Shown: piece by piece, positions 1 to 48,119 of the stretch
Position numbering within the stretch: the stretch's first letter is position 1
Layout of the letters: each line of letters starts with the position of its first letter
From: a virus
Lineage: Duplodnaviria > Heunggongvirae > Uroviricota > Caudoviricetes
Length of the DNA: 48,119 bases
Virus record (IMG/VR): IMGVR_UViG_643348551_000006
Coordinates: 1-48,119 of that record
Strand: one strand, 5' to 3'
Notes under the pieces: generated by a model
The model's database searches: none
What the model saw: only the letters and a program-made list of their open reading frames with translations
Told to the model about the DNA's origin: nothing
Translations under genes and position numbers: made by a program

Positions 1-1284
1 TTACAGACTTCTGGAAGGTTGCGCAGCTCTTACAACACGCGGTTGATCTTCCGCGGCGTCTTCCAGCGCACTTAAATCACGGTCTTTCACTTCTGGCATT
101 TTCAGCGCAGAGATTAAACCAATCACTGAATATGCCATGATCATAATGGCGATCGGATACCAGGATTCCGTCATGGTGCAGAAAATACCCGCCAGGATAG
201 GACCAAAACCGGAAGCGATAAGACCACCAATTTCTTTAGAAATAGCCATCCGGGTAAAGCGGTTTTTACAGCCGAACATTTCTGCCATGGTAATGTTTTC
301 CAGAGCAAATAATCCCAGCACCGCACAGTTATGAATCACAATCAGTGCAACCATAATGGTGCTCGGGGCATAGCTTTTATCTACGATGATAGAAAGCATT
401 GGCCATGCCAGCACAATCGCGGAGGTATTCATAATAATATACGGGATCCGGCGACCAATTTTATCGGATAACCAACCAAGGAACGGAATGGTCATAAAGC
501 CGAGAATCGAACTGATCATCAATGCATCTGTTGGAATTGCTTTGTTAAACAATAACGTCTGCACTAAATAGCCTGCAAGGAAAGTCTGAATTAAACCTGA
601 GTTACCCGCCTGACCAAAACGCAGCCCTGTTGCCAGCCAGAAGGATTTGCTCTGGAACATGCTACCAGCAGGTGCAGGTTTTGCTGTCGGTTGGTTGCTG
701 TCATTAACCTTCTCAAAGACCGGGCTTTCTTTCAGATTCATACGCAACCAGATAGCAAAGACCATCACGACAACGCTCGCCAGGAACGGTATACGCCATC
801 CCCACGCCAGCAGTTCCTCTTTACTGAGAATGAAGAACATAAAGGCCCAGATTGCCGTTGCGCTCAAGGTTCCGCAGTTAGTTCCCATAGCTACAAATGA
901 GGAGATAATTCCGCGCTTACCTTTTGGCGCATATTCCGCCAGCATCGTACCGGCACCGGAAATTTCCGCACCTGCACCCAACCCCTGAATAATACGCAGC
1001 GTCACCAGCAAGATGGGGGCAAAAACACCAATCTGTGCATAGGTCGGTAACACACCAATTAAGGTGGTACAGATCCCCATCATGGTGATGGTAATAAAGA
1101 GCACTTTTTTACGCCCTATTCTGTCGCCCATTTTGCCGAAAATAAATGCTCCGACAATACGCGCCACATAACCTGCACCGTAGGTTCCCATTGCCAAAAT
1201 TAACGCCATTGCCGTTGATGATTCAGGAAAAAATATTTCATGAAACACTAACGCTGCGCCGAGCGAATATAACTGGAAATCCAT
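1..1284 (-). CDS. ydfJ: MFS-superfamily transporter (metabolite:H+ symporter type), complete 427 aa; host gene flanking the prophage
   Basis: 427-aa ORF with many hydrophobic segments and the MFS loop motif GKMGDRIGRKK. Resembles E. coli YdfJ/ShiA/KgtP-type transporters; the ydfJ symbol is tentative and leans on the known Qin-prophage neighbourhood. Confidence 0.8.
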   Translation of the reverse strand: MDFQLYSLGAALVFHEIFFPESSTAMALILAMGTYGAGYVARIVGAFIFGKMGDRIGRKKVLFITITMMGICTTLIGVLPTYAQIGVFAPILLVTLRIIQGLGAGAEISGAGTMLAEYAPKGKRGIISSFVAMGTNCGTLSATAIWAFMFFILSKEELLAWGWRIPFLASVVVMVFAIWLRMNLKESPVFEKVNDSNQPTAKPAPAGSMFQSKSFWLATGLRFGQAGNSGLIQTFLAGYLVQTLLFNKAIPTDALMISSILGFMTIPFLGWLSDKIGRRIPYIIMNTSAIVLAWPMLSIIVDKSYAPSTIMVALIVIHNCAVLGLFALENITMAEMFGCKNRFTRMAISKEIGGLIASGFGPILAGIFCTMTESWYPIAIMIMAYSVIGLISALKMPEVKDRDLSALEDAAEDQPRVVRAAQPSRSL

Positions 1285-1555
1285 AATTCATAGATGTTTT
1301 TTACCATCCTGTGGATTTTTTGACGTTTTCTAAGTTTTTTCAGGTAGTTGTATTTTTTCTAAAAACCCATGATCTCGATTTTGCTGTTTATCTGAGGCCT
1401 TTTTATGTCCCATATATGCCCCAAAGGTGCTCCATGCAAAATATCTGGCGTAGTCTTCTTTCTTGCCAGTAGTTTTAGAGCTTTCACAATCCAGTCTCCT
1501 CCGCTAAAATTGATCACGGAAGACCTTCATATTAGAACTTGCTATACTCAAAAGC

Positions 1556-1625
1556 TAAAAGCCCGACTGTTGACGCAGCCGGGCTTTCATTTTTCAGATA
1601 CAAAAAAACCGCTCATGGCGGCTTA
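1556..1625. terminator. Back-to-back hairpins with flanking T/A runs between tfa and the host transporter gene (bidirectional terminator candidate)
   Basis: Stem AGCCCG...CGGGCT followed by TTCATTTTT on the plus strand; stem CCGC..GCGG followed by a T-run on the minus strand immediately after the tfa stop. Confidence 0.4.
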
Positions 1626-1629
1626 TTCA

Positions 1630-2202
1630 TTACTCAACGTCAAGCGCTCGAATTGAAACCAAATCATCCAGGCCGCTCAACCTCTCTTTCATCTCCCGCT
1701 GGCGACGATAAATTTCGTCGTTGCGATCGACCTGCGCCTGCGCCATTGCTGCAGCCAGTTCTTCCAGTTCCGGCATCGACAGTTTCACCTGTTGATTATC
1801 GGCGTCACCCCACGTCAGAGCGGTTCGTGCTGTATCGAATTTCGCAGCCATTACCACCGGATAAAGACGGGCCAGCGAATCAGGGCCAGCATTCCAGGTG
1901 TGGTCGTTCCATTCGAACGTGAACGGCTTCGCCTCCTGCTCTGTACGCCACGCTTCGATTTCCCGCTTTTTGGCATCTTTCGCTACGGTGATAAGTTCAG
2001 GTGTTATGGTGAACGGGGCGATTTCACCCCATTTGCCACTCTGCAGTTCCTCCCAGATTTGCTGGCCTGTCGTTTCAGTGTCTTCTTGTGTGGCTGTATA
2101 GGGAATGGGGGCCTCCATCCCTTCAAATAAAACCTCACAGTCAATTGCGCCACTTTCAAGATAGCGGGCATTTCCTATTTTTTTTATTTCCATAAAATTC
2201 AC
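1630..2202 (-). CDS. tfa: Tail fibre assembly (chaperone) protein
   Basis: 190-aa ORF immediately downstream of the Stf-like gene with almost no gap, the canonical stf-tfa arrangement; composition typical of prophage Tfa chaperones. Confidence 0.75.
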   Translation of the reverse strand: MNFMEIKKIGNARYLESGAIDCEVLFEGMEAPIPYTATQEDTETTGQQIWEELQSGKWGEIAPFTITPELITVAKDAKKREIEAWRTEQEAKPFTFEWNDHTWNAGPDSLARLYPVVMAAKFDTARTALTWGDADNQQVKLSMPELEELAAAMAQAQVDRNDEIYRRQREMKERLSGLDDLVSIRALDVE

Positions 2203-3975: not shown

Positions 3976-4254
3976 ATTTTTCTCGCGATAAATTAAATCA
4001 GGAAGATGCTTCCGGAAGCGCAGGTCATTCAATATCCGGCGCGGTCGATGTATCAACACGGTTCAGCAACACCCGATACTTCTTCCGGACTGAAAGCAAT
4101 GATGCCTGTTCCTGTGTTGCATTTACATCTCACCTTTTCACCCGCGATTAACCAACAGCCAGACTTAACAGACATGCTACAACCGGCATCGCAAAATCCA
4201 TAAGGCTTCTAACACCCCATACGCACGGATCAAAACCACCCTGCCACGGCATAT

Positions 4255-4428
4255 TCATACGCTTGCCATGCCCGAACGTTTCAAGCCAGCGTTCTTCTGC
4301 CAGGGGGCACTCACAACGAAGAACGTACAACCGACTATCGCACCGTAAACCCAGCTTCCGGTAAAAAGACCAACCAGTATCTGCGCAGCCACATCACAAA
4401 GCACATGAAGGAAAAGTGTTATATCCAT
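4255..4428 (-). CDS. Small hydrophobic ORF (57 aa) between the two fibre genes; may continue by frameshift into the 4148..4330 frame
   Basis: ATG directly after the fibre stop, preceded by AAGGGGGGG; translation MDITLFLHVLCDVAAQILVGLFTGSWVYGAIVGCTFFVV... The overlapping 60-aa track ORF in another frame suggests a frameshifted or decayed gene. Confidence 0.25.
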   Translation of the reverse strand: MDITLFLHVLCDVAAQILVGLFTGSWVYGAIVGCTFFVVSAPWQKNAGLKRSGMASV

Positions 4429-4438
4429 TATCCCCCCC

Positions 4439-7267
4439 TTATCCGATATCGCTTCGGGAAGTTGATAACAACTTTAATTCTGACTCAAGTTCATCAACTC
4501 TTTTTGTCAGTTTCTGAATATGGTGAATAAGCGGAACAACCAGACGATCATACATCACACCTTCAGCAACCATCCCATTATCAGACGCTATACCTGGATC
4601 ATCTTTGTCTGTAAGAGGACGCCAGTGAACATATTGCGGTGCTATCTCTCCGACTTCTTCTGCAATAAGGCCATAATGTCCCCAGTCCTTTCTGTCCCTT
4701 TCACAAGTCGAGCGATACCATACAGGACGAAGTTTCAACAGCTCATCCGCGTACTTGTCCTCTAAAGACTCGATATCCGTCTTGTATCGACGGGATGAAG
4801 TCGAACGAAAAACCATGTTGTAGCCAGCAATCGGACTTACGAACATGTTAGGACTATCGGTTGTTGTCTGAATGTCGAATATTTGCAAACAATAACAAGT
4901 TAACGTCTGGAAGTTTGCATCTAACGAGCCAGCTTCAAGTCTTGACGATGTGAGAAAATTCCTGTTTAAATTGTTAATCTCCGATATGCTGTAAGTTCCT
5001 ATCTCAAGTGGTGTCGGCAGGTTTTTAGTGTTGTACTGCCTGCGCCAGCCTGGCGAATAACCATCCCCATTGTAAACGTAAATAAATTCGGCGTTTACTT
5101 TTGCACCGGAAACGCTGGTAGTCGTTGCGGTGGTGATCCTGATTGTGTAGTTAGTCATGCCAAAGCTGGTTATTTCAATCAGTGCGCCAGCAAGCGGAAT
5201 AGTGCCGCATTTTGTTTCGCTATCCGGTATTGAGGCGTTATTAGCATAAGCCCACGAACAGCGAGCAATCCATGTACGCTGATTGAATGCGCCGTTATTT
5301 TGCAGCAGTGTAATAAATGACGATGTGGATAACGATTGTCCTGAATCGCCAGTATTCAGCCATGCCTGAGACGAAGCAGCAGCGCCGATGTTACCAGGCG
5401 TTAGAGTTATATCTTTCGTGCCGTCAAAAGCCACATTGTTAATGCTTCTCGCTGTCTGCAATTTGGTGGCGGTTGCCGCGTTCCCCTTCAGTGCCCCGGT
5501 GATCCCGCCAGTAACAGACAACGGACCTGAAATAGTCCCTCCAGTTGTTGGCAGTGCTCCAATATCTGATGGTGTAGGTTTCTGATGTGAGCTAAACATC
5601 GTATAAACAACACCATCGGTAACGCCGGAAGGCTTACTCGCTGAATATGCTGGCGAGGTATAAACAGAAACTGACGCATTTGCAGTGCAATCCCAATGGA
5701 TATTTACACTCGTCGCATAATTGCCAATCTCAACGTAAATATCATATGTATCGCCGGATGTGTTGATCCAGGCGAAATTTGTTAATCCTGCGCCTGTTCT
5801 TTTCCACAAAGCTCCAGTAATCCCTTTGGGATTTCCATTGCCTGCTCGCAAAACCAGTTCTGAAATGCCTGCCTGCTGTGGGGAGCCGACGTTGTAACCA
5901 GCGCCACCAATCAATGTGATGTAAACGATGGAACTCGCTTGTGGCATGGTAACCGTAGCCAGTTTGAACCACCCTGCCCCGCCAGAGAAAGACATCGTTA
6001 CTGAATTGAAAGTGCCAATATCTTTCGGCGTTAATGTTATATCCGCTGTCAGTGCTTTCCCGTTAACTTTTCGGTTAGATGGTACCCTGCCATTCGCATT
6101 GTCATTCGCTGCTTTAACTGCCTTCGGTGTCGCGGCAAGCGTTTCAGATGTACTGTTGGTTGCACTACTGAGCTGAACGATCCCCTTTTTCGTCGTGCTC
6201 GCATCCTCAAGCCCCACGGCGGATGCAATATCCTCCGCCCGTTTTGCTGCTGTCTCGGCGCGCGTTGCTGCAGATTCCGCCTTACTTTTGCTCTGAGCTG
6301 CCGCTGTCGCACTGCCAGCAGCCTCTGTCGCCTTCGTGGATGCCGTCGTGGCACTTCCCTTCGCTGCTGACGCCTGTTTAGTTGCCTCATCTTTTGAAGC
6401 AGACGCCGATGAGGCCGATGACGCCGCCGAACTGGCGGACGATGCGGCAGCCGTTTTTGAGGATTCTGCGCTGGTTTCCGACGCTTTCGCGTTCGTTTCG
6501 GATGTCTTCGCTGCGGAAGCTGACCTCGCTGCTGCGCTGGCCTGTTCAGTGGCTTCGCCAGCCTTCGTTGTGGCTGTTGAAGCGGACGAGGCAGCGCTTT
6601 CTGCCGATTTTCCGGCGGCGGTGGCACTGGCTGAGGCCTGCCCGGCACTTGTTGACGCGGCACCGGCACTGGTGGCAGCCGCGCTTTTTGAAGACTCTGC
6701 AGCGGCAGCACTTTTTGATGCTTCAGTGGCCTTTGTTGATGCCGTTCCTGCGCTGGAAGATGCTGACTGAGCAGATGATGCAGCCTGTCCGGCTGACGTG
6801 CTGGCGGCACGTGCTGAGCCTGCAGCATCGGTTGCATGAGTTGCCGCCTCGCTGGCTGATGCACTGGCATCACTGGCTGACTTCTTCGCGGCTGCCGTGT
6901 TCTGTGCCACTGCGGACGCGTTACGCGCCACCTCTTCCACCATCAGTTCAAAACGGCGCAGTGCCTCCGGACGGGCATCATCCTCCGTCATGGCACCGAG
7001 AAAATCATTCAGCGTACCGGGTCGGGAATCTTCATGCACGGTGATGGTCCCGGCATGTGACGGCGGGAATCCCACCACCAACAGAATAACGCTGTACTGA
7101 CCGTACTCAACGTCCATGCTGTAACGCCCGGCTTCATCCGGATTTTCTGAGGCCACTGTGTTCACCACCACCGTGGTGCTGTTACGTTTTGCTTTCAGCT
7201 GGATTGTGCAGTTCTGTATCGGTTTACCTGCACCGTCTTTCAGTACACCTGAAATCTTTACTGCCAT
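4439..7267 (-). CDS. Second side tail fibre protein with Ala/Ser-rich repetitive shaft and C-terminal self-cleaving intramolecular chaperone (peptidase S74-like) domain; start at MAVKISGVLKDG
   Basis: N-terminal Stf-type anchor (MAVKISGVLKDGAG...GTLNDFLGAMTEDD); long low-complexity A/S/T region; C-terminus ...RRYKTDIESLEDKYADELLKLRPVWYR...GLIAEEV...VVPLIHHIQKL typical of endosialidase-type chaperone domains. Confidence 0.85.
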   Translation of the reverse strand: MAVKISGVLKDGAGKPIQNCTIQLKAKRNSTTVVVNTVASENPDEAGRYSMDVEYGQYSVILLVVGFPPSHAGTITVHEDSRPGTLNDFLGAMTEDDARPEALRRFELMVEEVARNASAVAQNTAAAKKSASDASASASEAATHATDAAGSARAASTSAGQAASSAQSASSSAGTASTKATEASKSAAAAESSKSAAATSAGAASTSAGQASASATAAGKSAESAASSASTATTKAGEATEQASAAARSASAAKTSETNAKASETSAESSKTAAASSASSAASSASSASASKDEATKQASAAKGSATTASTKATEAAGSATAAAQSKSKAESAATRAETAAKRAEDIASAVGLEDASTTKKGIVQLSSATNSTSETLAATPKAVKAANDNANGRVPSNRKVNGKALTADITLTPKDIGTFNSVTMSFSGGAGWFKLATVTMPQASSIVYITLIGGAGYNVGSPQQAGISELVLRAGNGNPKGITGALWKRTGAGLTNFAWINTSGDTYDIYVEIGNYATSVNIHWDCTANASVSVYTSPAYSASKPSGVTDGVVYTMFSSHQKPTPSDIGALPTTGGTISGPLSVTGGITGALKGNAATATKLQTARSINNVAFDGTKDITLTPGNIGAAASSQAWLNTGDSGQSLSTSSFITLLQNNGAFNQRTWIARCSWAYANNASIPDSETKCGTIPLAGALIEITSFGMTNYTIRITTATTTSVSGAKVNAEFIYVYNGDGYSPGWRRQYNTKNLPTPLEIGTYSISEINNLNRNFLTSSRLEAGSLDANFQTLTCYCLQIFDIQTTTDSPNMFVSPIAGYNMVFRSTSSRRYKTDIESLEDKYADELLKLRPVWYRSTCERDRKDWGHYGLIAEEVGEIAPQYVHWRPLTDKDDPGIASDNGMVAEGVMYDRLVVPLIHHIQKLTKRVDELESELKLLSTSRSDIG

Positions 7268-42998: not shown

Positions 42999-43318
42999 TT
43001 CACCCTCCTGAGGGTTGGTAATTAAGGAGTTCTCCACGGGTGAGGTGGAGTGCGTGCGCCGGACACGGGTGAGCATCCGGCACTGACAGTTTACTGAAAG
43101 GATATGTCCCTGAAAGTCAGGGCATAACGCGAAAGCGCACGGCGAAATTGGTCTCTCTGTACGGTGTCGTTAAATTTAGTTCGACCGTGCGCTTCCGGTT
43201 GTGGCACTCCGCGAAATGGCGCGGAGGTAAGTATGGCGGGGTTATTCCTTCCCCGTTGAGGACACCGGGTTGTCAGGTTGACCATACGCTTAAGTGACAA
43301 CCCCGCTGCAACAACCCA

Positions 43319-43375
43319 TGTTGATTACCTTTTGGCGGCATCAGTTTCATTGCTGGCTGATGTCCGCCCTTTTTA
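43319..43375 (+). ncRNA. dicF: DicF-like small RNA (cell-division/ftsZ-regulating sRNA family)
   Basis: TTTGGCGGCATCAGTTT...GCTGATGTCCGCCC then TTTTT: the GGCGG-(C/T)ATCAGTTT core and intrinsic terminator resemble E. coli DicF (from memory); located upstream of dicB as in Qin. Confidence 0.5.
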
Positions 43376-43377
43376 AA

Positions 43378-43541
43378 GTGAATTTTGTGATGCGGTGAAT
43401 GCGGCTCAGCGCACGCGGAACAGTTAAAAAGGCCAGTTGACTTCCGTATTGGTTCTTATGGGTGGGTTCTCTGTATCCGGCGTTAATTGTTAACTGGTTA
43501 ACGTCACCTGGAGGCACCAGGCACCGCATCACAAAATTCAT
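43378..43541 (+). repeat. Perfect 19-20 bp inverted repeat (GTGAATTTTGTGATGCGGTG ... CACCGCATCACAAAATTCA) spanning ~125 nt just upstream of dicB
   Basis: Read directly from the sequence; arms at 43378..43397 and 43523..43541. Candidate long RNA stem (RNase III-type processing site) in the dicB operon transcript. Confidence 0.6.
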
Positions 43542-43557
43542 TGTTGAGGACGCGATA

Positions 43558-43746
43558 ATGGAAACGTTATTACCAAACGTCAATACGTCTGAAGGTTGTT
43601 TTGAAATTGGTGTCATAATCAGTAACCCTGTATTTACTGAAGATGCCATTAATAAGAGAAAACACGAACGGGAGCTATTAAATCAAATATGCATTGTTTC
43701 AATGCTGGCCCGTTTACGCCTGATGCAAAAAGGACGCTGCCAATGA
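43558..43746 (+). CDS. dicB: Cell division inhibitor DicB
   Basis: METLLPNVNTSEGCFEIGVIISNPVFTEDAINKRKHERELLNQICIVSMLARLRLMQKGRCQ, 62 aa, near-identical to E. coli DicB. Confidence 0.85.
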   Translation: METLLPNVNTSEGCFEIGVIISNPVFTEDAINKRKHERELLNQICIVSMLARLRLMQKGRCQ

Positions 43747-43946
43747 ATACAGCATTTGCACTCGTTCTGACAGTTTTTCTTAATACAGGCGAACCAGTCG
43801 ATCTTGTTATTGGTATACATGACTCAATGAAAGAATGCATGGCTGCCGCAGCGGAACAGAAAATTCCCGGCAACTGTTATCCGGTTGATAAAGTTATTCG
43901 CATGGACAATAACGAAATCCCGGCAGGACTTAAAACAGCACCGTAA
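43743..43946 (+). CDS. ydfD: YdfD-like protein
   Basis: MNTAFALVLTVFLNTGEPVDLVIGIHDSMKECMAAAAEQKIPGNCYPVDKVIRMDNNEIPAGL...; start overlaps the dicB stop (ATGA). Confidence 0.8.
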   Translation: MNTAFALVLTVFLNTGEPVDLVIGIHDSMKECMAAAAEQKIPGNCYPVDKVIRMDNNEIPAGLKTAP

Positions 43947-44023
43947 TTAATATCCGGTTTCATTTTTATATGCCAGCAATGGCAGGGATTTGTTCACCCT
44001 AAAAATAGTTACGAGGTTTATCA

Positions 44024-46483
44024 ATGAGCGCTGATAAAGAAGAAATTGCACTATATTACGAAGCCAAAAATGACAAAGTCAGAAAACGCCTTGGGATTAA
44101 AGGCGGTTTTTACTGGCGCACAGCAAAAAAATTATCGATTGCAATATCACGCGGTGTTGTCGCAATGGACGATGCCGGATTTGACGAAGAGGATTTTAAA
44201 AAACCTGTTCGCGTCCATTTACCCGTTGTGAATGACCTTCCTCCGGAAGGCGTGTTTGATACCGAATTCTGCAACCGATACGAAAAAGGCGGGGAAGATG
44301 GTATCACAATGGTACTTATCGCGCCCTCTGTTCAGGACAAACCAGCCAGCACTGACAATACCAACGTCAACGGTGAAGACATGACTGAGATTGAGGAGAA
44401 TATGCTCCTGCCAGTTTCAGGTCAGATTCTGCCTGTTCGATGGCTGGCGCAACACAACAGCGAAAAACCGATCACGCACGTTTCGCAGGACGAACTGCGC
44501 GCATTACATAACGCACAGGATGAAAAACTTCCCGCCGTTACCGCGCTGGCCATCTCAAATAAAGCAGCGCAACTCGAACCACTGGAAATTCGCGATCTCC
44601 ACAAACTGGTACGCGACACTGACAAAGTTTTCCCTAATCCTGGTAATTCAGACCTGGGACTGATGACCGCTTTTTTCGAAGCATACCTGGGCGCTGACTA
44701 CACCGATCGCGGTCTGCTTACAAAAGAGTGGATGAAAGGAAATCGTGTTTCACGCATCACCCGCACGGCTTCCGGTGCTAATGCCGGTGGAGGGAACAAA
44801 ACCGATCGCAATCCGAATTTAGTACACACCTTTGATACGCTGGATGTGGAGATTGCAGCGGCCACACTTCCGATGGATTTTAATATTTATGAAATTCCGG
44901 GCAGCGTTTATCGTCGCGCAAAAGAAGTCGTCCGGAAGAAAGAAAGTCCGTTCAAAGAATGGTCCGCAGCACTTCGCGCAATCCCGGGTATCCTGGATTA
45001 TTCCCGCGCCGCTATTTTTGCACTTATCCGGAGCGCACACCCTGAGTTTTATCATTACCCGGGACGCCTTCAGGGGTATATCAACGCCTATTTAACGGAG
45101 ACTGATCACGAGAACCCTACCGAGGAAACTCTCGCTGCTGCACGACATACACCGGAAAAAGATATCCTGGAAGAAGTTAACCGCGAACTGGCTGCTGAAC
45201 GCGAAACAGAAGAAGAAAAAAATAATGAGGAAAAATCACAACCGTCTGACGCAATGGCAGATGAACAGGCAACGGCTGAAACAATGGAGCCGGATACAAC
45301 TGAACATCGCCAGGACACGCAATCGCTGGATACTCAGGCGCAGATAGATCCGGTTAATCAGGTAAAAGTTACCGCTGACGAAGTAAACAAAATTATGCAG
45401 GCAGCCAATATCAACCAGCCTGATGCCGACAAAATACTGGCAGTCCATCGCGGTGAGTTCGTTGATGGCATTAGCGACCCGAATGATCCGAAATGGGTGA
45501 AGGGGATTGAAACCCGCGATTCTGTAAACCAGAACCAGCAAGAATCGGAACAGAACGACCAGAAAGCGGAACAAAACAGCCAAAATGCGTTACAAAACGA
45601 GCCAGAAACGAAACAACCTGAGCCAGTAGCGCAACAGGAAGCGGAAAAAGTCTGCACCGCCTGCGGTCAGACCAGCGGCGGCAACTGCCCAGATTGTGGT
45701 GCGGTGATGGGCGACGCAACGTATCAGGAAACCTTTAATGAAGAAAATCTGGATGAATCTCAGGAAAAAGATCCGGAGGAAATGGAAGGCGCTGAACATC
45801 CACACAAGGAGAATGCTGGCAGCTATCAGGACCACGCCAGCGATAGCGAAACTGGCGAGACGGCAGATCCCTTAATTGCGGTGAACGGTCATCACGTTAT
45901 CACATCCACCAGCAGAGTGTGGTACCACCTGATGATCGACCTTGAAACGATGGGTAAAAAAAGTAATGCCCCCATCGTGGTTATTGGTGCTGTGTTCTTC
46001 GATCCGCAGACCGGGGAAATCGGGCCAACATTTTATATCGTTATCAGCCTGGTTGACGCTATGGACACGGGTGCTGTTCCTGATGGTTCCACCATCGAAT
46101 GGTGGCTTGCTCAGTCCAGCGAAGCCAGATCTGCAATTTTAGTTGATCAGGTAAAACTGGTTGACGCTCTTATTCAATTTCGGGAATTCATCAATGAGTA
46201 CTCGGATGAAAAATTCGTTCAGGTATGGGGCAATGGTGCAACTTTCGACAACACTATTTTACGAACCTCGTACGAACGCCTGAACATCCCCTGCCCGTGG
46301 CGTTACTACAACGATCGCGATGTACGTACAATCGTTGAACTGGGAAAAACTATCGGCTTCGATGCCAGAACAGTTATTCCATTTGAAGGCATGCGCCACA
46401 ATGCGCTGGATGATGCCCGTCACCAGGCAAAATACGTTACAGCTACGATACAAAAACTGATCCCGAGTCAGGCTGATTTTTAA
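44024..46483 (+). CDS. Large early-left protein (819 aa, YdfE-like N-terminus): unknown N-terminal domain, acidic linker, CxxC...CxxC zinc ribbon, C-terminal DEDDh (DnaQ-like) 3'-5' exonuclease domain
   Basis: C-terminal motifs MIDLETMG (Exo I), GNGATFDNTIL (Exo II), HNALDDARHQAKY (Exo III); zinc ribbon CTACGQTSGGNCPDCG; occupies the exo/recE position of lambdoid phages. Confidence 0.7.
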   Translation: MSADKEEIALYYEAKNDKVRKRLGIKGGFYWRTAKKLSIAISRGVVAMDDAGFDEEDFKKPVRVHLPVVNDLPPEGVFDTEFCNRYEKGGEDGITMVLIAPSVQDKPASTDNTNVNGEDMTEIEENMLLPVSGQILPVRWLAQHNSEKPITHVSQDELRALHNAQDEKLPAVTALAISNKAAQLEPLEIRDLHKLVRDTDKVFPNPGNSDLGLMTAFFEAYLGADYTDRGLLTKEWMKGNRVSRITRTASGANAGGGNKTDRNPNLVHTFDTLDVEIAAATLPMDFNIYEIPGSVYRRAKEVVRKKESPFKEWSAALRAIPGILDYSRAAIFALIRSAHPEFYHYPGRLQGYINAYLTETDHENPTEETLAAARHTPEKDILEEVNRELAAERETEEEKNNEEKSQPSDAMADEQATAETMEPDTTEHRQDTQSLDTQAQIDPVNQVKVTADEVNKIMQAANINQPDADKILAVHRGEFVDGISDPNDPKWVKGIETRDSVNQNQQESEQNDQKAEQNSQNALQNEPETKQPEPVAQQEAEKVCTACGQTSGGNCPDCGAVMGDATYQETFNEENLDESQEKDPEEMEGAEHPHKENAGSYQDHASDSETGETADPLIAVNGHHVITSTSRVWYHLMIDLETMGKKSNAPIVVIGAVFFDPQTGEIGPTFYIVISLVDAMDTGAVPDGSTIEWWLAQSSEARSAILVDQVKLVDALIQFREFINEYSDEKFVQVWGNGATFDNTILRTSYERLNIPCPWRYYNDRDVRTIVELGKTIGFDARTVIPFEGMRHNALDDARHQAKYVTATIQKLIPSQADF

Positions 46484-46552: not shown

Positions 46553-46804
46553 ATGAGCGAAGTAATCATGATTGTCTCTCCCGGTAAATGGGTATCCGAA
46601 GAACAGCTAATTGCGCTGAAAGGAATAAAAAAGGGAACGCTAAAAAAAGCCAGGGAAAAATCGTTTATGGAAGGAAGGGAATATAAGCATGTAGCCCATG
46701 ACGGTATGCCATGGGATAACAGCCCATGCTTTTACAACCTGGAAGAAATTGATCGCTGGATTGAACGTCAGGCATCAGCAAGACCAAGACGTCATCTTAC
46801 TTGA
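46553..46804 (+). CDS. xis: Excisionase-like protein (Xis)
   Basis: 83 aa immediately upstream of int; ...GKWVSEEQLIALKGIKKGTLKKAREKSFMEGREYKHV...YNLEEIDRWIERQ resembles Rac/Qin-type excisionases. Confidence 0.6.
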   Translation: MSEVIMIVSPGKWVSEEQLIALKGIKKGTLKKAREKSFMEGREYKHVAHDGMPWDNSPCFYNLEEIDRWIERQASARPRRHLT

Positions 46805-46838
46805 CTAAAAACAATACTAACCAATGAGAGAAGCTAAA

Positions 46839-48119
46839 ATGAAATATCCGACAGGCGTGGAAAACCATGGAGGGAAATTACGTATCTGGTTTGTTTATAA
46901 AGGTGTAAGAGTCAGGGAAAATCTGGGGGTTCCTGACACGACAAAAAACAGGCGCATTGCAGGTGAGCTGCGCGCCTCTGTTTGTTATGCAATAAAAACC
47001 GGCGTTTTCGACTATGCAAAACAGTTTCCCTCCTCACACAATCTGGAAAAATTTGGTGAGGCCCGACAAGATTTAACCATAAAGGAACTGGCTGAAAAAT
47101 TTCTGGCACTGAAAGAAACGGAAGTCGCAAAAACGTCACTCAACACGTACCGTGCCGTCATCAAAAATATTCTGAGCATAATCGGTGAAAAAAATCTTGC
47201 CTCGTCGATTAATAAAGAAAAATTGCTGGCGGTACGTAAAGAGTTACTTACTGGTTACCAGATCCCCAAAAGTAATTATATTGTTACGCAACCGGGGAGA
47301 TCGGCTGTCACCGTAAATAATTACATGACAAATCTTTACGCCGTGTTCCAGTTTGGTGTTGATAACGGTTACCTGGCAGATAATCCGTTTAAGGGGATCT
47401 CGCCATTAAAGGAATCAAGAACCATTCCTGATCCTCTTTCACGGGAGGAATTTATCCGTCTTATCGACGCCTGCAGAAATCAGCAGGCCAAAAATTTATG
47501 GTGTGTTTCTGTTTATACAGGCATTCGCCCTGGTGAACTGTGTGCGCTTGGGTGGGAGGACATAGATCTGAAAAATGGAACAATGATGATCAGGAGAAAT
47601 TTAGCAAAAGATCGTTTTACGGTACCGAAAACACAGGCTGGTACCAATCGGGTAATTTACCTTATCAAGCCTGCAATCGACGCTCTCAGGAGTCAGATGA
47701 CACTAACGAGGCTGAGCAAAGAACATATTATTGACGTTCACCTCAGAGAGTTCGGCAGAACAGAAAAACAAAAATGCACCTTTGTTTTTCAACCTGAAGT
47801 GTCAGCGAGAGTAAAAAATTATGGTGACCATTTTACCGTTGACTCAATAAGGCAGATGTGGGACGCAGCGATAAAACGTGCCGGACTCCGCCACCGCAAA
47901 TCATATCAGTCGAGACATACTTATGCCTGCTGGTCGCTGACAGCCGGTGCCAACCCGGCATTCATAGCAAACCAGATGGGACATGCAGATGCGCAAATGG
48001 TGTTTCAGGTATACGGGAAATGGATGTCTGAAAACAATAATGCACAGGTAGCCCTGCTAAATACACAGCTAAGCGAGTTTGCCCCAACCATGCCCCAAAA
48101 CGAGGTGGCGCAAAATTAA
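46839..48119 (+). CDS. int: Tyrosine-recombinase integrase; start at MKYPTGVENHGG (track ORF begins 46824); stop is the last codon of the window
   Basis: N-terminal arm-binding-type domain (KLRIWFVYKGVRVRENLG), catalytic region ...R...HxxR...Y with ...SRHTYACWSL...; full length. Confidence 0.85.
   Translation: MKYPTGVENHGGKLRIWFVYKGVRVRENLGVPDTTKNRRIAGELRASVCYAIKTGVFDYAKQFPSSHNLEKFGEARQDLTIKELAEKFLALKETEVAKTSLNTYRAVIKNILSIIGEKNLASSINKEKLLAVRKELLTGYQIPKSNYIVTQPGRSAVTVNNYMTNLYAVFQFGVDNGYLADNPFKGISPLKESRTIPDPLSREEFIRLIDACRNQQAKNLWCVSVYTGIRPGELCALGWEDIDLKNGTMMIRRNLAKDRFTVPKTQAGTNRVIYLIKPAIDALRSQMTLTRLSKEHIIDVHLREFGRTEKQKCTFVFQPEVSARVKNYGDHFTVDSIRQMWDAAIKRAGLRHRKSYQSRHTYACWSLTAGANPAFIANQMGHADAQMVFQVYGKWMSENNNAQVALLNTQLSEFAPTMPQNEVAQN

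Follow-up and report, generated by a model that had tools for sequence, protein, structure and literature searches.

A lambdoid prophage junction in the 5′ end of ydfJ and the truncated transporter gene beside it

Introduction

The left end of the DNA studied here, a 48,119-nucleotide stretch of viral sequence (hereafter the window), raises the question of where precisely the prophage gives way to the host chromosome, and of what its insertion has done to the host gene at that border. On the minus strand a transporter reading frame occupies positions 1..1284, and the last phage gene on this side, also on the minus strand, is a tail-fibre-assembly-like (tfa-like) gene at 1630..2202, which sits behind a tail-fibre gene and encodes a 190-aa DUF4376 protein (Pfam DUF4376 E = 8.5e-17; RefSeq). 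The initial annotation of this DNA, made from the window alone, had the phage genes end with tfa at 1630, as we find, but it also took the transporter to be intact, the attachment site to lie somewhere in the roughly 350 bp between the two genes (1285–1630) and the prophage to be inserted next to the transporter. We arrive at a different reading. The element is very probably a Qin/mEp460-type lambdoid prophage whose λ-style site-specific recombination with the chromosome took place in the 5′ end of ydfJ, and the reading frame left beside it is a truncated gene that happens to look complete.

Position of the junction within ydfJ

A megablast search against 5,426 complete E. coli genomes identified the left reading frame as ydfJ. 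Positions 1–2300 of the window are 99.6% identical to strain GPEC79-13-647, in which only host genes (ydfI, ydfZ, rspR, ydfG) are found to the left of ydfJ, and the left side of the window is indeed the prophage end that it had been taken for. In the prophage-free strain PM4-5 the site is empty: the gene order is ydfI–ydfJ–rspB–rspA, and ydfJ, which is 1,368 nt long (455 aa), adjoins rspB. Comparison with such a prophage-free locus, already proposed in the initial annotation, confirmed the host–prophage junction and at the same time contradicted the reading of the transporter gene as intact.

The att sequence was derived by comparing the window with this empty site, with the int-side junctions of two strains and with the attP of three free phages. 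It follows the 18- or 19-bp pattern CTGGAAATCCATAA(A)TTCA and lies at 1273–1290, astride the left border of the interval to which it had been assigned. The attB version has 19 bp (CTGGAAATCCATAAATTCA) and falls at about codons 27–32 of ydfJ, the attP version has 18 bp (CTTGAAATCCATAATTCA), and the 18-bp copy in the window, which marks the tail-fibre-side junction (attR in the λ convention), is the hybrid CTGGAAATCCATAATTCA. In length, which is what was compared, this att is in line with the ‘18- or 19-bp att sequence’ that the S7 legend of Nakamura et al. (2021; PMC8112680) gives for ydfJ prophages on the basis of attP PCR and comparison with empty ydfJ.

Within the att sequence, an 11-bp segment at 1276..1286, GAAATCCATAA, is the same in the alignment of attB, attP and both junctions, and strand exchange must therefore fall inside it. 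The window follows attB through 1286 and is unrelated to it from 1287 onward, save for a TTCA shifted by 1 bp; identity with the phage attP starts at 1276, identity with the host stops at 1286, and the int-side junction follows attB starting at the base equivalent to 1276. The attB of PM4-5 is reproduced by joining the left flank of the window, the core and the right flank of GPEC79-13-647, with a single SNP in about 200 bp. Of the interval that had been read as the junction zone, only 1285–1286 belong to the crossover segment and 1287–1630 is phage DNA. The prophage boundary is better drawn at 1276–1286 than at 1630 or across a span of ~350 bp.

The other end of the window carries the recombination genes, both on the plus strand: an excisionase of DUF1233 type (46553..46804; Pfam PF06806, E = 1.6e-31) and a 431-aa tyrosine integrase with an N-terminal arm-DNA-binding domain (46824..48119; Pfam Arm-DNA-bind_2 7.2e-24, Phage_integrase 8.5e-18), the gene sharing 94% identity with int in the free phages mEp460 and PhiR42_1. 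The initial annotation was right that the integrase runs to the last base of the window, its stop codon ending at 48119, and that the right att with the partner repeat lies outside. The one exact match to GAAATCCATAA in the window is at 1276–1286 and the one match to the 19-mer pattern at 1273–1291, and no second att copy was found there when 3 mismatches were allowed to the 19-mer and 1 mismatch to the 11-mer; two one-mismatch matches were at chance level. With a single core copy inside it, the window alone does not allow the repeat to be checked.

None of the ten records listed for the window in the complete E. coli collection matched it identically over its full length, so the int-side junction was read from two relatives, GPEC79-13-647 and EC21Z-048, whose prophage ends are near-identical to those of the window, the prophages themselves not being identical. 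The GPEC79 prophage is about 1.8 kb shorter, and EC21Z-048 carries a different int allele. In both strains the int stop is followed by 37 bp and then by GAAATCCATAAATTCAAGCG…, which leads into ydfJ codons 28→1 and rspB. Specifically, the sequence after the 37-bp spacer reads GAAATCCATAAATTCAAGCGCAG…, the opposite strand of which gives ydfJ codons 28→1 (MTIEKHERSTKDLVKAAVSGWLGTALEF), the upstream region and rspB. The segment GAAATCCATAA at 1276–1286 recurs here in the same orientation, forming a direct repeat. The 28 ydfJ codons missing from the window, including the start codon, are found beyond the integrase in these two strains, adjoining rspB; the prophage sits inside ydfJ, not next to it. 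For the window itself, the partner junction would be expected 37 bp past the integrase stop as …CTCTTGAAATCCATAAATTCAAGCGCAG, followed by ydfJ codons 28–1 and rspB, and the predicted order past 48119 is TTTATTAATTATCAAATAGTTACTACTCATGACTCTT-GAAATCCATAA-ATTCAAGCGCAGTGCCCAGCC…, then, on the minus strand, ydfJ codons 28→1, the ydfJ promoter and rspB.

The empty site agrees with both junctions and with the attP of the free phages. The attP core CTTGAAATCCATAATTCA and attB CTGGAAATCCATAAATTCA recombined within the 11 shared bases GAAATCCATAA to give the junction at 1273–1290. Integration split ydfJ: codons 29–455 remain as 1..1284 of the window, and codons 1–28 with the promoter now lie, judging by the two relatives, beyond int by rspB. 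Int and Xis could presumably excise the prophage again and so restore ydfJ.

The phage att arm and its history

The tail-fibre-side arm of the phage attP occupies 1287..1425 of the window; it is AT-rich (33% GC), with four T6 tracts at 1297, 1316, 1335 and 1353. Its assignment comes from free phages. An attP reconstructed from the 3′ end of int, the 37-bp spacer, the core and the window from 1287 onward is matched by BLAST as a single piece in mEp460_ev081, PhiR42_1, HannyBb and Tritos, at about 90% over 587 bp; the junctions of the first three were aligned, and Tritos enters as a BLAST match over the same span. In the free phages int, the 37-bp spacer, CTTGAAATCCATAATTCA and the arm are contiguous up to the equivalent of 1425, and thus 1287–1425 is the phage's own att arm. 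The same arm is common to the K-12 prophage Qin and an EDL933 prophage, and adjoins ydfJ′, as we call the truncated gene, in 3,158 genomes. When 1287–1700 was compared with a phage database, the matches covered the arm only and all ended at about 1426, and 1427–1630 had zero matches in that database.

The two sides of this module differ in their relatives. The arm is about 81% identical to mEp460 against 94% for int, and positions 1100–1423 of the window are 96% identical to EDL933 (a figure that includes about 185 bp of host DNA). Given an arm nearer to EDL933 than to mEp460, the int–att module may itself be recombinant. The same disparity could be taken further, with the arm at 1287–1425 being a relic of an older Qin/EDL933-like ydfJ prophage that was gained either through homologous recombination or through a tandem integration with subsequent deletion. 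Such an origin would also fit the sharp mosaic break at 1426, the occurrence of the neighbouring tfa module in a prophage at ompW in strain E9, and the tandem prophage clusters and inter-prophage recombination at ydfJ that are documented in PMC8112680. We nevertheless consider it unlikely, as the window holds no second att copy, int remnant or duplicated arm, the two arms are what one int–att module of the free-phage kind would have, and mosaic breaks are normal in lambdoid phages and call for no special history. A relic arm would alter the history of the junction, which would then stem from an earlier integration than the rest of the prophage, and not its nature.

Candidate integrase- and IHF-binding sites

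Integration by the phage's own integrase at this site would call on binding sites in both arms, and the arm at 1287–1425 ends in a 10-mer, ATGCCCCAAA (1416..1425, plus strand), that repeat statistics and conservation mark as a candidate arm-type integrase-binding site. The 10-mer occurs just twice in the 48-kb window (1416–1425 and 48090–48099), compared with 0.19 copies expected, and a third copy of TGCCCCAA is located at 48080–48087, 11 bp upstream of the 10-mer copy at 48090–48099; the window has no further copies. The last 40 bp of the integrase gene contain two tandem copies of TGCCCCAA (48080–48087 and 48091–48098) and represent the int-side att arm, which continues for 37 bp beyond the window. 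All three motif positions are kept in the free phages. Two of the copies are within the int coding sequence, and because the int-side 10-mer is located there its conservation may reflect coding constraint. It is plausible that the arm-binding domain of the integrase contacts the ATGCCCCAAA/TGCCCCAA motifs. On the int side, 28 bp from the core, an IHF consensus (TATCAAATAGTTA) is present in the reconstruction and in three free phages, where 0.04 would be expected by chance, and IHF may bend the DNA at this site.

A search of the reconstructed attP for 9-mer repeats also returned TTTCAGGTA (−154/+62) and the inverted pair ATGGGACAT/ATGTCCCAT (−181/+129). A rough estimate puts the chance number of exact 9-mer pairs in 435 bp at about 0.4 for each kind, and so no meaning was attached to these.

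The spacer and terminators beside the tfa-like gene

Between the att arm and the tfa-like gene, genome and phage searches define a rare mosaic spacer (1426..1629) without a credible gene. It is nearly whole in just three of the 5,426 genomes; in strain E9, 1441–1640 travels with the DUF4376 gene in the ompW prophage. One piece of it, 1458–1529, recurs as intergenic DNA of unrelated prophages and is uninformative on the junction. Related prophages carry variable cargo after the arm, namely a DinI-like gene and NleG effectors in EDL933 and ynfT–ydfK–pinQ in K-12 and mEp460, in place of which the window has these roughly 200 bp. The DinI-like cargo gene of related prophages starts at the ATG of 1416–1425, and here an 18-codon remnant of it is left (1416–1472). 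A terminator scan further revealed two tandem intrinsic-terminator-like hairpins on the minus strand (1556..1624), downstream of the tfa-like gene: the first runs 1624→1606 and is followed by a T7 run, and the second runs 1589→1556 with a 14-bp stem. The minus-strand RNA fold of 1545–1630 has an energy of −36.5 kcal/mol (z = −5.06).

Might this segment (1426–1630) instead encode a functional small RNA or small protein? A σ70-like promoter match on the plus strand (1483–1510, 10/12) has a hairpin with a T-run downstream of it (1558–1598), and when 1150–1750 was compared with Rfam under a permissive E-value, ctRNA_pGA1 scored 26.6 bits (against a gathering score of 45) and sar 21 bits. However, every Rfam score in that scan was far under the gathering score, the plus-strand fold is unremarkable (z = −1.46), the two open reading frames of the interval that were compared with Pfam, 1359–1517 (minus strand) and 1405–1656 (plus strand), have no matches, and the hairpins are well accounted for as minus-strand terminators of the tfa-like gene. 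Together with the rarity of the segment among the genomes, this makes a functional product most improbable. The sub-threshold antisense-RNA-like Rfam matches were rejected as evidence of an RNA gene, being driven by the terminator hairpin.

Truncation of ydfJ and its annotation

With spacer and terminators on the phage side of the junction, what remains is the host gene. The ydfJ′ reading frame (427 codons) has clear MFS/MHS transporter signatures in Pfam and NCBIfam profiles. The frame is real, but position 1284, where the initial annotation had the gene end, is not its true start. The encoded protein corresponds, with one mismatch, to residues 29–455 of the 455-aa YdfJ of PM4-5, and the apparent ATG at 1282–1284 (CAT on the plus strand) is the internal Met29 codon of ydfJ, inside the att core. 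By this comparison and the list of open reading frames, positions 1..1284 hold an MHS-family MFS transporter gene without its first 28 codons and promoter. What an intact YdfJ would have, residues 1–28 with the start of TM1 and the …LEF-MDFQLY motif in a 455-aa protein, and the native promoter upstream, is absent here, and the phage DNA has an in-frame TGA two codons upstream of the apparent start. The RefSeq annotation of ydfJ reads ‘incomplete; missing N-terminus’ in GPEC79-13-647, in K-12 (the Qin carrier) and in EDL933. The NCBIfam profiles of paralogues (ShiA, ProP, TcuC) do not begin to align with the window protein until profile positions 22–40, as expected of an N-terminally truncated protein. 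Because the Met29 codon is in the att core, which by chance holds this in-frame ATG, integration leaves a 427-aa reading frame that seems complete but is not.

Intergenic insertion beside an intact transporter, with att somewhere within 1285–1630, can thus be dismissed as having next to no probability: a 427-aa frame that begins with ATG, has clear MFS domains and is present with the same 427 codons in K-12 speaks for it, but the empty-site comparison already refutes it, and the RefSeq flag, the late start of the paralogue profile matches, the missing 28 codons on the other side of the prophage, the contiguity of 1287–1425 with int in free phages and a published description of the same truncation all stand against it.

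A promoter scan found no minus-strand match in 1150–1750, and this absence and the two terminators suggest that ydfJ′ is silent; the terminators would insulate it from transcription. We see only a very small chance that signals in the phage arm drive expression of ydfJ′ as a functional 427-aa transporter variant, or that 1426–1630 is a small regulatory RNA. Either of these, if true, would give the junction a host-facing function, so that it would be more than a passive scar, and, as the att core supplies the ATG at the junction, every phage using the ydfJ site would create the same reading frame. The main value of the present result is in the annotation: ydfJ should here be called a prophage-disrupted pseudogene. 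More generally, a reading made from a single window can take a gene-disrupting integration for an intergenic one.

Comparison with known systems

Probed with a 250-bp spanning sequence, attB is uninterrupted in 2,009 of 5,372 matching genomes (37%) and split in the rest (about 63%), which, in line with the literature, places ydfJ among the most frequently used lambdoid integration sites of E. coli. The junction described here is an ordinary tail-fibre-side prophage end at a well-described hotspot and of a kind that is already known: integration into the 5′ end of ydfJ with the loss of 28 codons has been published (PMC6379469), as has, in the S7 legend of PMC8112680, the 18/19-bp att. Biologically, the element adds a further case to an E. 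coli integration hotspot that is very commonly occupied, and it opens no new question.

The prophage Qin of K-12 has the same target, the same break point, the same 1,284-nt ydfJ′ remnant and the same junction, CTGGAAATCCATAATTCA. Its location in ydfJ, with 28 N-terminal codons and the promoter lost, was described previously (PMC6379469). Its ~140-bp arm is homologous to that of the window (positions 1100–1425 match at 91.8%, host DNA included), and it shares the int-proximal gene set of dicB, a ydfD-like gene, an exonuclease, xis and int. Qin, however, is a decayed remnant with ynfT–ydfK–pinQ after the arm, whereas the window element extends from tail fibre genes to xis–int over about 47 kb, and no cargo separates its arm from the tfa-like gene.

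The PPydfJ prophages of STEC and EPEC (O157:H7, O26:H11 and others), as characterized in PMC8112680, are likewise lambda-like elements in ydfJ with an 18/19-bp att, and the same source records an attP amplicon for the ydfJ prophage of strain 11368. The junction of the EDL933 prophage is that of the window and its arm is closely similar, the core-plus-TTCA being identical in the window, K-12 and EDL933. Phages of the EDL933 type carry a DinI-like gene and NleG-type effector loci after the arm; in contrast, the window has no effector genes from the arm to the tfa-like gene.

Among free phages, mEp460, PhiR42_1, HannyBb and Tritos have int, a 37-bp spacer with the IHF consensus, CTTGAAATCCATAATTCA and an arm of ~140 bp in one contiguous stretch, with the same parts as the prophage studied here; the int identity of 94% refers to mEp460 and PhiR42_1, and the IHF consensus was compared in three of the free phages. 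Beyond the arm these phages have ydfK-like and invertase genes, where the window has its 200-bp spacer.

The attachment site of the window phage is, finally, organized much as that of λ, whose attP has arm-type sites distally on the long arm and in tandem on the int-side arm. Common to both are a short core shared by phage and host, an AT-rich long arm on the tail/b-region side with a shorter arm abutting int, an integrase with a separate arm-binding domain, an excisionase upstream of int and an IHF consensus that flanks the core towards int. In position and length, the arm at 1287–1425 is the equivalent of the λ P arm, and the candidate arm sites, known here from sequence, are likewise placed with one distal on the long arm and a tandem pair on the int-side arm. 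The two phages differ in core sequence, in target and in the family of the arm-binding domain, which is PF12167 in the window phage and another family in the λ integrase. They differ too in what integration does to the host: λ inserts between gal and bio, where no gene is interrupted, whereas the window phage disrupts ydfJ.

Module exchange at the tail-fibre end

The DUF4376 tfa-like gene (1630–2202, minus strand) and the 200 bp downstream of it, together window 1441–2202, are 97.5% identical to L010 2501–3285, a locus of strain E9 in which the prophage bearing this module is integrated at ompW, and the tail-fibre module has therefore been swapped between prophages at different integration sites. 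A 72-bp piece of the mosaic spacer (window 1458–1529) has counterparts of approximately 90% identity in about 20 E. coli genomes, inside an unrelated, baseplate-encoding prophage. In that prophage the counterpart is intergenic and separates a baseplate gene from two inserted genes, one for a hypothetical protein and the other for a ‘type I restriction endonuclease’. This piece may represent a moron boundary or linker sequence. Further into the prophage, the stretch between the two tail-fibre genes (window 4060–4440) corresponds to L001 7025–7429 in the near-identical strain GPEC79-13-647 (GPEC79). The annotation of that strain places here a partial pseudogene for tail-fibre assembly and a hypothetical gene with a frameshift, which suggests that the tail-fibre cassette is decayed or rearranged.

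Attachment arm, integrase alleles and ydfJ

Within the att arm on the tail-fibre side, four T6 tracts (starting at window 1297, 1316, 1335 and 1353, and spanning 1297–1358) are spaced at intervals of 18–19 bp, and three of the four are kept in the free phages. These tracts could be Xis sites, accessory-protein sites or intrinsically bent DNA.

At the opposite end, the terminal codons of int (window 48100–48119) vary among alleles, with divergence beginning directly after the tandem TGCCCCAA motifs. The integrases of the window and GPEC79 are 431 aa long and end in …NEVAQN or a close variant, those of mEp460 and of strain EC21Z-048 are 426 aa, and that of PhiR42_1 is 431 aa but has an mEp460-like C-terminus, …NEAMKN. 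The interrupted target gene retains an ATG start codon in the ydfJ 5′ fragments of both GPEC79 and EC21Z-048. As a side observation, the annotated start codon of uninterrupted ydfJ in strain PM4-5 (L003 2767–2769) is ATA, not ATG; the gene is nonetheless annotated in RefSeq as encoding a complete 455-aa protein.

Comparison with other ydfJ prophages

The int-proximal region (window 43000–46483) contains dicB, a ydfD-like gene (DUF1482) and an ORF of 819 aa (44024–46483). The middle of this ORF is long, acidic and of low complexity, and its C-terminal part is annotated in related genomes as a 3′–5′ exonuclease. The int end of K-12 Qin has the same set of genes. In EDL933-type ydfJ prophages, a DinI-like gene starts at the ATG within the candidate arm motif ATGCCCCAAA. 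On the plus strand of the window (1416–1472), this ATG opens a DinI-like remnant of only 18 codons (MPQRCSMQNIWRSLLSCQ, then a stop), and the window prophage therefore lacks the cargo/effector locus found after the arm in STEC prophages.
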